A stretch of 64,000 bases of DNA from an uncultured Bdellovibrionales bacterium (lineage in GTDB: Bacteria > Patescibacteriota > Minisyncoccia > Moranbacterales > UBA1568), in contig CAZTBI010000001.1 in assembly GCA_964612055.1 (NCBI GenBank), forward strand, positions 156,246 to 220,245, given 5' to 3'. Of the stretch, positions 21,613 to 26,962 are shown in pieces (position 1 is the first letter of the stretch; the number at the start of each line of letters is the position of its first letter). The position numbers and the translations under genes are program-made. The notes beneath the pieces are model-generated. The model was not told where the DNA came from, made no database searches, and worked only from the letters and a program-made list of their open reading frames with translations.

Positions 21613-21662
21613 TTTCTCTTAGTTGTTTGGTAGTATACTTGGAAACAAGCTGTCTTCAACCT

Positions 21663-23681
21663 ATGCACGAATTTAGAGTAGAAATAAATACCGAATCGAT
21701 CAAAACGGAATTGGTCTCCTATTCTGATAAACCGTATCAATCCTTGTTTGAATATGTTTGGAATTCTTTTGATGCAAACGCAACGGATATTAACCTAAAA
21801 TACAAAGTTCCACCATCTGGTATAGGAAGAGTTGAAAACGTTGCGATTGTAGACGATGGAGATGGATGGAATTTTGACGAAAATAGGAACACTAGAACAT
21901 TTCTTTCTTCAACTAAGTCTAAGGAGAATAGTAAAGATAAAACCCTACCTCACGGGAAGTTTGGAAGAGGTAGATATGCATTTATATGGTTCGCTGAAAG
22001 TCTAGATATTTATAGTGGTGATAAAAGATTGAACCTCACTAGAGAGAACATTAAGGGAAAGATTTTTGAAGATCAAAAGCTTCAAAAAGGAACGAAGGTT
22101 TGTTTTTCCGGGATAACTGATGACTTATCCGATGCTCTTGCGTCAGAGCAAAAATTAAAAGATGAACTGTTAGCTGAATTTGGCTGGTTTATAAAACAAA
22201 ATGAAAACATAAAATTAAAACTCAACGGTATTCCGATCGAGCCAAGAGATAATATTAAGAACTCTAAAATTCTCAATACAAAAGACTTCCCTGAGGAGTT
22301 CTCTAAAAGTTTAGATAAGCACTTCAAAGTAGAGATTGTCCTATGGGAACAGAAGCCAAAAGAATGGTCAAATTTTTATTTCTTAAACAAAAATAGAGCA
22401 GAGTTATTTAAAAAAAGTACAGGATTAAACAAAAAAGGGGACAACTTCTGGCACTCTGTCTATGTCACATCTAATCTATTTGAAAGTCAGGATAAGAATA
22501 TTGAAGAAGAGGGTTTGAATCCATCTTTGCTTGGACTTATTGAGAAGGATAAGAAAAGAACTAAGAAAAAAATCCTAGATAAAATTAGACAGATTCTCAT
22601 AGACATGAGAAAGCCCTATCTTATAAAGGAGTCTGACAACTTGATTGAGGATTTAAAGGAAAGTGGCGCATTTCCTGATCTACCTTTCTTTGGAGTGTAT
22701 GATGAAGAATCTTTTAATGATCTTCTTAAGGCTATCTATGTCATAAGTCCCTCCCTCTTCGTTGGAAAGAGTGATCCAGAAAGAAAGTTTATTTGTTCAA
22801 CTTTCGCAGGCTTACTATCTTCTCAAGATAGACATTTAATACAGTTAATTCTTGAACAACTGCAAGATTTAACTGAAGAGGAGAAAAAAGATCTTTCAAA
22901 CATCTTACAGAGGACTTCGCTTTCAAGCATTGTTAAAACAATTAAAGAAATAGATCACCGACTTAACATTCTTGATAAGTTAAAAATATTATTGGTGGAA
23001 TTAAAGCAAGAAACCTTAGAAGTTAAGCATCTGCAAAAAGTGCTTGATGAAAACTTTTGGATATTTGGAGAGCAGTTCCGGCTGTTCAGTAGCACAGAGG
23101 GGCCTTTAAAAAGGACTCTTTTACAATATGCTACTGATATTTTAAAAATCTCTGATCCAGAATTACAATCTGAACCCAACGGAGAAGTTGATCTATTTTT
23201 AACAAGAGCAGATGCAGTGAATACGGCAAAACAAATGAATGTTATTGTTGAAATTAAAAGACCCTCAATCAAGTTGGCGAAAAAAGAGTATGATCAGATT
23301 GAAGAATATATGAATAGAATAAAAGAACAGGACCTTTGTAATGGAACTAACCAGTTCTGGGAATTTTACCTTATTGGAAATAACTATGATGATTATTTAG
23401 GAGATAAAATAGAATCACAAAGTGTCAGTGGGGAGAAAGAAAGGGGTCTAACTTATTCTGTTAAAGATTCTCACTTTAAGATATATGTACGTAAGTGGTC
23501 AGATATTCTTGAAGTTGAATGGGGAGCTAAAATGAAGTATCTGAAGGATAAATTACAAGTTGAATCTGAAAAAGAGGGTGGTTTAACGGCTGATGATATA
23601 GTAAAAAAAATTACTACTAAAAAACTATCAAAAGTAGTTATGTCAAGAACCGTAACCTACCCAAAACTTAAGAGTAGGTAA
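21663..23681 (+). CDS. GHKL-family ATPase fused to C-terminal PD-(D/E)xK-like nuclease domain (candidate defence protein)
   Basis: Bergerat fold boxes: N-box EYVWNSFDA, G1 VDDGDGW, G2 GKFGRGRY; C-terminus EVDLFL...(about 20 aa)...VVEIKRP fits D...ExK nuclease core; gene visibly AT-rich versus neighbours; ATG 21663 preferred over TTG 21627. Confidence 0.7.
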   Translation: MHEFRVEINTESIKTELVSYSDKPYQSLFEYVWNSFDANATDINLKYKVPPSGIGRVENVAIVDDGDGWNFDENRNTRTFLSSTKSKENSKDKTLPHGKFGRGRYAFIWFAESLDIYSGDKRLNLTRENIKGKIFEDQKLQKGTKVCFSGITDDLSDALASEQKLKDELLAEFGWFIKQNENIKLKLNGIPIEPRDNIKNSKILNTKDFPEEFSKSLDKHFKVEIVLWEQKPKEWSNFYFLNKNRAELFKKSTGLNKKGDNFWHSVYVTSNLFESQDKNIEEEGLNPSLLGLIEKDKKRTKKKILDKIRQILIDMRKPYLIKESDNLIEDLKESGAFPDLPFFGVYDEESFNDLLKAIYVISPSLFVGKSDPERKFICSTFAGLLSSQDRHLIQLILEQLQDLTEEEKKDLSNILQRTSLSSIVKTIKEIDHRLNILDKLKILLVELKQETLEVKHLQKVLDENFWIFGEQFRLFSSTEGPLKRTLLQYATDILKISDPELQSEPNGEVDLFLTRADAVNTAKQMNVIVEIKRPSIKLAKKEYDQIEEYMNRIKEQDLCNGTNQFWEFYLIGNNYDDYLGDKIESQSVSGEKERGLTYSVKDSHFKIYVRKWSDILEVEWGAKMKYLKDKLQVESEKEGGLTADDIVKKITTKKLSKVVMSRTVTYPKLKSR

Positions 23682-23830
23682 CACCTTGATTGATGTCGGT
23701 TATTTCGATGGCTTTGCTGAAGATGGCGCACCTATCAATGGACACGCGTTATCCAACTACGATGATGTTTCCGGAAAATGGACCGATATGAAATAGGACT
23801 AACATTCTCCAAGACAGGAGTAAAAATGGC

Positions 23831-23859
23831 TTGACGAAGGGATTATTTCATAGTAGTAT
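23831..23859 (+). promoter_or_regulatory. candidate sigma70 promoter (-35 TTGACG, 17-nt spacer, -10 TAGTAT)
   Basis: Read directly, about 25 nt upstream of ATG 23885. Confidence 0.3.
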
Positions 23860-23884
23860 CAGGGCAATCAATATTTATACATCT

Positions 23885-24502
23885 ATGCAGAAAAAACTTC
23901 TTCTTTCGGTACTTGCAGTAGCTCTCCTTATCAGTGGGGCAGTTTTGGTATGGCAGAAGAAAATGGCTCAAGAAGAGGATAAAAATCAGAATCAGGAGGT
24001 CGTACAAGAAAATACCAATAACGAGAAGTATCCGCAACATATTGAAGTCATCCAGGGAAGTGATGAAGTCTGGTACGGTATTCCAGAATATGGTGTCCGT
24101 ATGCGCTTGAATAGGGAATTTGCAGAAGATCTGATTTACAGCACCGAAATGACTGATGACTTTGGAGAAAAATCAAATGGCATCTTTTTTTCTACTAAGG
24201 TAATGACTGAAGTAGCTCCCGAGTGTTCTCCTGAAAGAGGTAATGCTTTAGGATCAGTTTTCAAGGCTAAAGGAAACATGATGGAATTAGCAAAAACTGA
24301 TGAATATCTTGCAGCAAGGGTAAATACTTATGTTCAGATTGGGGATTACTATTATGGATGGGTTGGACATCAGGCTCCATGTTGGTATCCTTCACACCAA
24401 GATATGGCAGAAAAAGAATGGTCAAAAGAATATAATGGTGTTTCTGGTGTAAATAGTCTTTATAATAGCTCCAAGACTTTTCAATTAATTCCATCAAAAT
24501 AA
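23885..24502 (+). CDS. secreted/membrane-anchored hypothetical protein
   Basis: MQKKLLLSVLAVALLISGAVLVW signal-anchor; no recognisable domain; ATG 23885 preferred over TTG 23831. Confidence 0.5.
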   Translation: MQKKLLLSVLAVALLISGAVLVWQKKMAQEEDKNQNQEVVQENTNNEKYPQHIEVIQGSDEVWYGIPEYGVRMRLNREFAEDLIYSTEMTDDFGEKSNGIFFSTKVMTEVAPECSPERGNALGSVFKAKGNMMELAKTDEYLAARVNTYVQIGDYYYGWVGHQAPCWYPSHQDMAEKEWSKEYNGVSGVNSLYNSSKTFQLIPSK

Positions 24503-24645
24503 AGGGTGGATATAATAAAAACAAACGGAAAGGAGATCGTTTTTCAGGGTATTCCTTGAATGAGTGGTTTCCAACCGTTTGTTTTGTTTATAACGGTTTT
24601 CCCCGTTCGTTCACAATCCATCAATGTTCACGAAAGGAGATCGTC

Positions 24646-26121: not shown

Positions 26122-26149
26122 GCTTGTTTGACTGAAAGGACTCTGAATC

Positions 26150-26485
26150 ATGAAACACATTCTCACCTCTCTGTTTGCTGCCATTCTCTTGGCGGTATCT
26201 CTGCCGGCTCAGGCTGGCTACGACGTCACCGCCAAGGTGATCAACATCGAGCCGTCCTACATGCCGGACATGCTTCTCTTCAAGCTCGACGCCGCCATCG
26301 GAACCTGCACTGTCGGGGAATGGGTCTACTACTCCGGCACCTACTACAGCCCGACCGATCCCAAGAAGAACACGCAAGCAGCCTATGCTGGATTGCTTTT
26401 GGCCCTTGCCTCTGGCAAGAAGGTCGAAGTGCACGCCGAAGCGGCTGGCTGCACCGTCGTCAACATCCATCCTACGAACCAATAG
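26150..26485 (+). CDS. small secreted two-Cys protein, paralog 2
   Basis: Signal peptide MKHILTSLFAAILLAVSLPAQA; paralogous motifs CTVGEW and YAGLLLALASGKKVEVHAEAAGC; same leader motif. Confidence 0.65.
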   Translation: MKHILTSLFAAILLAVSLPAQAGYDVTAKVINIEPSYMPDMLLFKLDAAIGTCTVGEWVYYSGTYYSPTDPKKNTQAAYAGLLLALASGKKVEVHAEAAGCTVVNIHPTNQ

Positions 26486-26504
26486 GACTGAAAGGAACCA
26501 AGTG

Positions 26505-26852
26505 ATGAACGCTCTCAAAACACTGTTGGCACTGCTGGTGTCAGGACTGACCCCCGTGTCCTTTGCTGGCACGGGGTCTGGAACAATCAACCAGATCTAC
26601 GTCCATTCTCCCAACAGCGGCTACAGCAGCGCGGTGGAAGGTCTGGTGTTTTTTACCACGGCACAGCACCTGAGTCCCCCGCTCTGCAGTGGAGTCCAGT
26701 GGGCCTTTTCTCTCGACAATGTGCGAGGCAGGATGATGTACGCGCTCCTGCTTTCGGCCAAGGCTCAGGGGAAGTCGGTGACGGTCTATGGAGACGGCAC
26801 TTGTACCGACTGGTCGGATCGCGAGAGGCCGTACTACTTGCTTCTCGAATAG
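26505..26852 (+). CDS. small secreted two-Cys protein, paralog 3
   Basis: ATG 26505 with AAAGGA 9 nt upstream; signal peptide MNALKTLLALLVSGLTPVSFA; motifs CSGVQW and MYALLLSAKAQGKSVTVYGDGTC. Confidence 0.65.
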   Translation: MNALKTLLALLVSGLTPVSFAGTGSGTINQIYVHSPNSGYSSAVEGLVFFTTAQHLSPPLCSGVQWAFSLDNVRGRMMYALLLSAKAQGKSVTVYGDGTCTDWSDRERPYYLLLE

Positions 26853-26886
26853 CACTGCTGAAACGACGACAATGATCGTCATGAGT

Positions 26887-26914
26887 CCTCTAGAAATAGA
26901 GGGCTTTTTTCTTT
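26887..26914 (+). terminator. rho-independent terminator closing the GC-rich islet operon
   Basis: CCTCTA-GAAA-TAGAGG hairpin followed by CTTTTTTCTTT. Confidence 0.6.
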
Positions 26915-26962
26915 CACTACGGAAGGAGACAAGAGAAAAAATGGCTGGTATAATGGCTATAT

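Follow-up and report, generated by a model that had tools for sequence, protein, structure and literature searches.

A two-unit insertion in a Moranbacteria glycan operon carries a GHKL ATPase-nuclease gene and a putative AB5-like wall-hydrolase operon

An insertion at a variable junction of the glycan operon

The window, the whole 64-kb stretch of DNA analysed here, derives from an uncultured Moranbacteria (CPR) bacterium. The genes and signals at the locus, including the host flanks, are the following and agree, apart from p205, with the genes and coordinates of the first-pass annotation:

20302..21612, +, ugd (UDP-glucose 6-dehydrogenase), left host flank; three UDPG_MGDP_dh Pfam domains (E 1e-33 to 1e-68)
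21663..23681, +, gene for a GHKL ATPase with a PD-(D/E)xK nuclease, 672 aa, paraMORC3 architecture
23682..23811, +, spacer, host-like in composition; an open frame in it resembles a lost gene's 3' end (...VGYFDGFAEDGAPINGHALSNYDDVSGKWTDMK, then stop)
23812..23831, +, direct repeat, left copy, 20 nt, AGACAGGAGTAAAAATGGCT
23831..23859, +, operon promoter-like site, TTGACG-17-TAGTAT (consensus scan), followed by a conserved leader
23885..24502, +, p205, 205 aa, N-terminal membrane anchor and extracellular domain
24520..24583, +, conserved intergenic hairpin between p205 and the enzyme gene, AACAAACGG...CCGTTTGTT (inverted repeat, MFE fold)
24646..25773, +, secreted wall hydrolase, 375 aa (CHAP, E=1.5e-7; CARDB, E=1.5e-5)
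25786..26121, +, sm1, secreted 111-aa OB-fold protein, AB5 B-subunit-like
26150..26485, +, sm2, secreted 111-aa paralogue (alignment)
26505..26852, +, sm3, secreted 115-aa paralogue (alignment)
26883..26914, +, intrinsic-terminator-like hairpin with T-run, ending the operon (scan)
26927..26946, +, direct repeat, right copy, AGACAAGAGAAAAAATGGCT, 18/20 identical
26963..28126, +, GT4 glycosyltransferase gene, right host flank (Glycos_transf_1, E=5e-39; orthologues in 80 loci)
24655-25722, 25855-26184, 26114-26590 and 26541-27017, -, antisense ORFs

In the window, 5,350 nt separate ugd from the GT4 gene. The junction was compared among 46 related Moranbacteria loci in which ugd lies upstream of the GT4 gene. 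The distance from the ugd stop to the GT4 start is 3-150 nt in 35 of these, and in 7 the gap is filled with 1.07-5.5 kb of other cargo. None of the six inserted genes matches any gene in the 80 related loci fetched, which span at most ~21 kb each around the GT4 gene, and the conserved gene order GT2-ugd-GT4-LPG_synthase_TM is broken by the block. The 5,350 nt are an insertion. With the gene order interrupted and the block absent from 80 of 80 related loci, the first-pass annotation was right to describe an accessory segment that splits the glycan locus. Every insert junction is spanned by Logan contigs of run SRR16481186 at 100% identity (L082, L001).

The junction between ugd and the GT4 gene is a recurrently variable point in a conserved cell-envelope glycan operon of Moranbacteria. 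In other lineages it holds LCAT-type lipases with a MazF toxin, a rhamnosidase or a rubrerythrin, and in the closest relative (L002) it is filled with unrelated DNA, which bears out the hotspot suggested earlier. Absence from relatives, deviant composition, cargo that varies by lineage at one junction, and a direct repeat (here of 20 nt around one unit) are likewise features of classical genomic islands and integrative elements at tRNA hotspots. Unlike those, the insert is only 5.3 kb long, its insertion point is an intra-operon gap of as little as 3 nt, and no integrase, transposase or tRNA was found. The first-pass annotation had proposed a search of the flanks for integrase or tRNA remnants: the window has no tRNA gene, there is no integrase among the genes scanned within ~10 kb, and no recombinase or tRNA to account for mobility was found.

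The insert comprises two unrelated units, the GHKL gene (unit 1, ~21.61-23.81 kb) and a hydrolase operon (unit 2, 23.83-26.93 kb). Elsewhere GHKL homologues never adjoin the hydrolase operon and copies of the operon never adjoin a GHKL gene, indicating that the two units are independent. The spacer between them (23682..23811) had no match in any fetched locus.

Unit 1 is a solo GHKL ATPase-nuclease gene

The N-terminus of the GHKL protein matches HATPase_c_3 in Pfam (aa 27-121, E=3.7e-13), and the region at ~aa 500-580 matches HSDR_N_2 (E=3e-6) and PDDEXK_4 (E=0.006). More than 350 homologues with 50-58% identity are scattered patchily across CPR, Bacteroidota and Campylobacterota (Sulfurovum). 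They occur in type I RM loci (HsdM-GHKL-...-HsdR), in type III RM loci (Mod-GHKL-Res), beside a TIR protein and in defence islands. ParaMORC3 proteins are defined by the combination of GHKL, S5 and an RE-fold nuclease, are RM-linked or solo, and are laterally mobile (PMC2292703). GHKL-type Shedu (type I-D) includes VcSduA of Vibrio cholerae, which guards against T1-like phages (PMC12137116). The paraMORC3/GHKL-type Shedu proteins have the same N-terminal GHKL ATPase and C-terminal PD-(D/E)xK nuclease in ~650 aa, and are sporadic across phyla, in RM operons or solo, as here (PMC2292703; PMC12137116). In contrast to them, the nuclease region here matches HSDR_N_2 and PDDEXK_4 and not DUF4263, the signature domain of Shedu, and the protein fits none of the PADLOC models. 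A further difference is that the gene here is solo, with no RM partner within ~10 kb. Unit 1 belongs to a laterally mobile, AT-rich gene class. Its most likely role is ATP-controlled cutting of invading DNA, a defence activity that we infer.

Unit 2 is a self-contained portable operon

Unit 2 is a portable operon that brings its own promoter and terminator and is flanked on both sides by the 20-nt repeat; its copies occupy different genomic sites in different genomes. The repeat has only two matches in the 64 kb at up to 3 mismatches, both at the operon ends, and none in 100 shuffles. The right copy overlaps a promoter-like site of the GT4 gene (26926-26954), and the AAAAATGGCTG-TATAAT portion of this region is common to L002. 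At the left end, the stretch gcTTGAC...GGCAATCA is kept upstream of p205 homologues in L095 and L097. The intergenic hairpin has a U-rich 3' flank and belongs to no Rfam family; the window, L095, L096 and L097 all retain it, and at 3 pairs both partners have changed. The terminator described earlier at the block end is present as a hairpin (26883-26906) followed by a T-run; the 3' UTR and hairpin (...GGCAATGACC...GCTACTCT..AGGGTAGCC-T7) are conserved downstream of the final small gene in L095, L097, L099, L100, L102 and L103.

The first gene of the operon, p205 (23885-24502), was missed by the first-pass annotation, and it goes with the CHAP rather than the GHKL gene. Its homologues directly precede the genes of CHAP-type-A enzymes in L095 (E=4e-63), L096, L097/L098 and L101, and p205 has no match in Pfam, NCBIfam, PHROG, PADLOC or PDB. 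The p205-type upstream membrane protein tracks the catalytic domain of the enzyme. We regard p205 as a candidate partner of the CHAP domain or as its putative immunity protein.

The enzyme is predicted to be a Sec-secreted peptidoglycan hydrolase with a glycan-binding-like beta-sandwich. It consists of a signal peptide, a CHAP domain, a Gly-rich linker, the beta-sandwich and a short, hydrophobic C-terminal helix (DYSWLIPIINLILED). In the AF2 model (pLDDT 78.6), built without partners, the helix spans aa 365-374 (~10 residues). The best match of the beta-sandwich is the carbohydrate-binding domain of Wzt for O-antigen (E=3e-6). We found 52 homologues of the hydrolase in 5.8 billion proteins. 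All named homologues are from Moranbacteria except for a single Nitrososphaera-binned record, and the hydrolase family is thus not a foreign one in this lineage. L097 and L106 have the same flanks with catalytic domains and partners swapped.

The small proteins co-vary with the enzyme tail

The three small genes trail the enzyme gene at intervals of 12-28 nt. Their products have Sec signal peptides and two invariant cysteines, with mature chains of ~90 aa. They model as OB folds (sm1, pLDDT 82.5), for which the best matches are the B subunits of AB5 toxins (cholera, pertussis). At the sequence level no link to the AB5 B families was found; the sole Pfam match is a sub-threshold one of sm2 to DUF5992 (E=0.0036), and the sole match in the PDB sequence search is CipA (E=0.006). 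Orthologues of sm2 with 48-62% identity follow CHAP-A, CHAP-B and M23 enzymes in L089, L097/98, L099, L102, L103/105 and L106. Those of sm3 include a Vibrio neptunius protein (52% identity), whose gene stands alone between arrays resembling effector and immunity genes. In one family variant five domains are arrayed in tandem on a single chain, and a second variant carries a ricin-type lectin fusion.

The small proteins co-vary with the C-terminal tail of the enzyme, not with its catalytic domain, as observed over ~12 loci, several of them from related genomes. Enzymes with tail type 1 are followed by a clear sm2-type gene in 8/9 operons and by a divergent small gene in the ninth (L095), and this applies to CHAP-A, CHAP-B and Peptidase_M23 catalytic domains alike. 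With tail 3 the small gene is of another type, and one enzyme with a non-helical tail (tail 4) lacks a small gene.

These observations bear on whether the small proteins, orphan copies included, are immunity proteins or inhibitors of the hydrolase rather than a delivery platform, to which we assign a low but appreciable probability. Small paralogous secreted genes directly after a wall hydrolase form the classic effector-immunity layout, and the setting of the V. neptunius homologue fits it. Type VI (T6SS) Tae/Tai amidase, Gram-positive toxin-immunity and polymorphic toxin loci likewise combine a wall hydrolase with small secreted or membrane neighbours, swap domains and partners in cassettes at one site as L097 and L106 do, and are rare and patchy in distribution. 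However, the same sm2 type (48-82% identity) is encoded downstream of three catalytic domains that are unrelated to one another (CHAP-A, CHAP-B and metallopeptidase M23), an M23 enzyme is followed by an sm1 orthologue with 87% identity, and the partner type goes with the tail while the upstream membrane protein goes with the catalytic domain. The five-domain and lectin-fused members also argue against inhibitors. Unlike effector-immunity cassettes, the enzyme here carries a standard Sec signal without any marker of a secretion system, and the downstream proteins do not track the catalytic domain. The arrangement is also the reverse of typical polymorphic toxins, with a variable N-terminal catalytic domain and a conserved C-terminal module.

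The AT-to-GC switch is internal to the operon

Base composition was compared with 41 other genes of the window (GC 0.453 +/- 0.031, GC3 0.470 +/- 0.055). As the first-pass annotation had noted, the GHKL gene is markedly AT-rich (GC 0.336, z -3.7; GC3 0.296, z -3.2), and the three small genes are GC-rich outliers (GC 0.56-0.575, z +3.5 to +3.9; GC3 0.70-0.74, z +4.1 to +4.9; 0.74 for sm2 and 0.71 for sm3). The pile of overlapping antisense ORFs that it described was also recovered (four on the minus strand, 24655-27017). The CHAP gene, which it had called very GC-rich, lies within the host range (GC 0.501, z +1.5; GC3 0.566, z +1.8). The p205 gene is AT-rich (GC3 0.30, z -3.1). Tetranucleotide distance in 2-kb windows agrees, with peaks of z 6.8 at the GHKL gene and 4.4 at the small genes that top every background window, and z 1.8-1.9 in windows restricted to the CHAP gene. 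Thus the proposed deviation stands for the GHKL and small genes and falls away for the CHAP gene.

The earlier suggestion that two foreign segments from donors of opposite composition landed serially, with the switch as the seam, is unlikely. There are indeed outliers on each side as well as two independent units, and the 20-nt repeat suggests that the operon inserted beside a GHKL gene already present. The seam, however, does not lie between the GHKL and CHAP genes: the AT-rich p205 is part of one conserved operon together with the CHAP and small genes, and the true boundary is at ~23.81-23.83 kb, upstream of p205. Along the operon GC3 rises from ~0.3-0.44 through 0.5-0.6 to 0.67-0.82 in 11/11 copies examined, in hosts with flanking GC of 0.35-0.51. 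The ordinary composition of the CHAP gene and the near restriction of its family to Moranbacteria also speak against opposite donors. The AT-to-GC switch is internal to one operon, intrinsic and conserved, and is no seam between acquisitions; because the gradient recurs in all 11 copies, it is uninformative on donor genomes.

Discussion

CHAP and M23 enzymes are common autolysins. A purely housekeeping function for unit 2, as an autolysin module in division or in growth of the cell's own wall and devoid of any role in antagonism or host interaction, would suit a Sec-secreted enzyme encoded alongside a membrane protein, but is quite improbable given the rarity of the family, its absence from the 80 fetched loci of at most ~21 kb each around the GT4 gene, the different genomic sites of the operon and the exchange of catalytic domains and partners between genomes with the same flanks. 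Most improbable is that the block is a chimera of assembly or binning, or what is left of a prophage (a lysis cassette with a defence gene carried by the phage): the GHKL protein does match phrog_6203 over its full length (E=1e-55) and has distant homologues (27% identity) in two Pasteurella phages, but p205, the enzyme and the small proteins have no PHROG match, neither the enzyme nor the GHKL protein has a relative among the 2.9 million viral contigs of IMG/VR, phage structural genes are absent nearby, the small proteins have cleavable Sec signals and no spanin or holin features, and the Logan contigs reproduce all junctions.

The most interesting reading of unit 2 is an AB5-like wall-hydrolase complex, which we infer from the operon and its relatives. 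AB5 toxins (pertussis, cholera/LT, Shiga, subtilase SubAB, typhoid, EcxAB) have the same operon order, with an enzyme followed by ~100-aa secreted OB-fold subunits, and a conserved Cys pair in the B subunits. Pertussis toxin has several paralogous B genes, as in sm1-sm3, and the A domain is interchangeable among AB5 families, as CHAP and M23 are here; the short terminal helix that co-varies with partner type adds to the likeness. The A subunits in a review comprise only ADP-ribosyltransferase, N-glycosidase, subtilase, metzincin and CdtB (PMC11610972). Unlike the AB5 toxins, the small proteins share no sequence similarity with any B family, an extra beta-sandwich precedes the tail, and, because the enzyme is a peptidoglycan hydrolase, the target would be a bacterial wall and not the eukaryotic cytosol. 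Known AB5 toxins assemble in the Gram-negative periplasm and act on eukaryotic cells, neither of which applies to a CPR producer that has no periplasm. For the AB5 pentamer, the counterpart here is putative.

Taken as a whole, the reading of a hotspot insertion with two units, an AB5-like hydrolase complex and a solo defence-type ATPase-nuclease, appears reasonably probable to us. The insertion, its two units, their domain content, the predicted folds and the co-variation are shown here, and the oligomer, the docking through the enzyme tail, the identity of the target cell, the protection by p205 and the defence activity of unit 1 are putative. The small proteins would build an oligomeric platform, probably ring-shaped like the B subunits of AB5 toxins, on which the hydrolase would dock via its C-terminal helix. 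Co-varying with the catalytic domain, p205 may shield the producer's own wall. Steered by the platform, the hydrolase would reach the surface of its target cell, most plausibly the episymbiont's host bacterium or a competitor.

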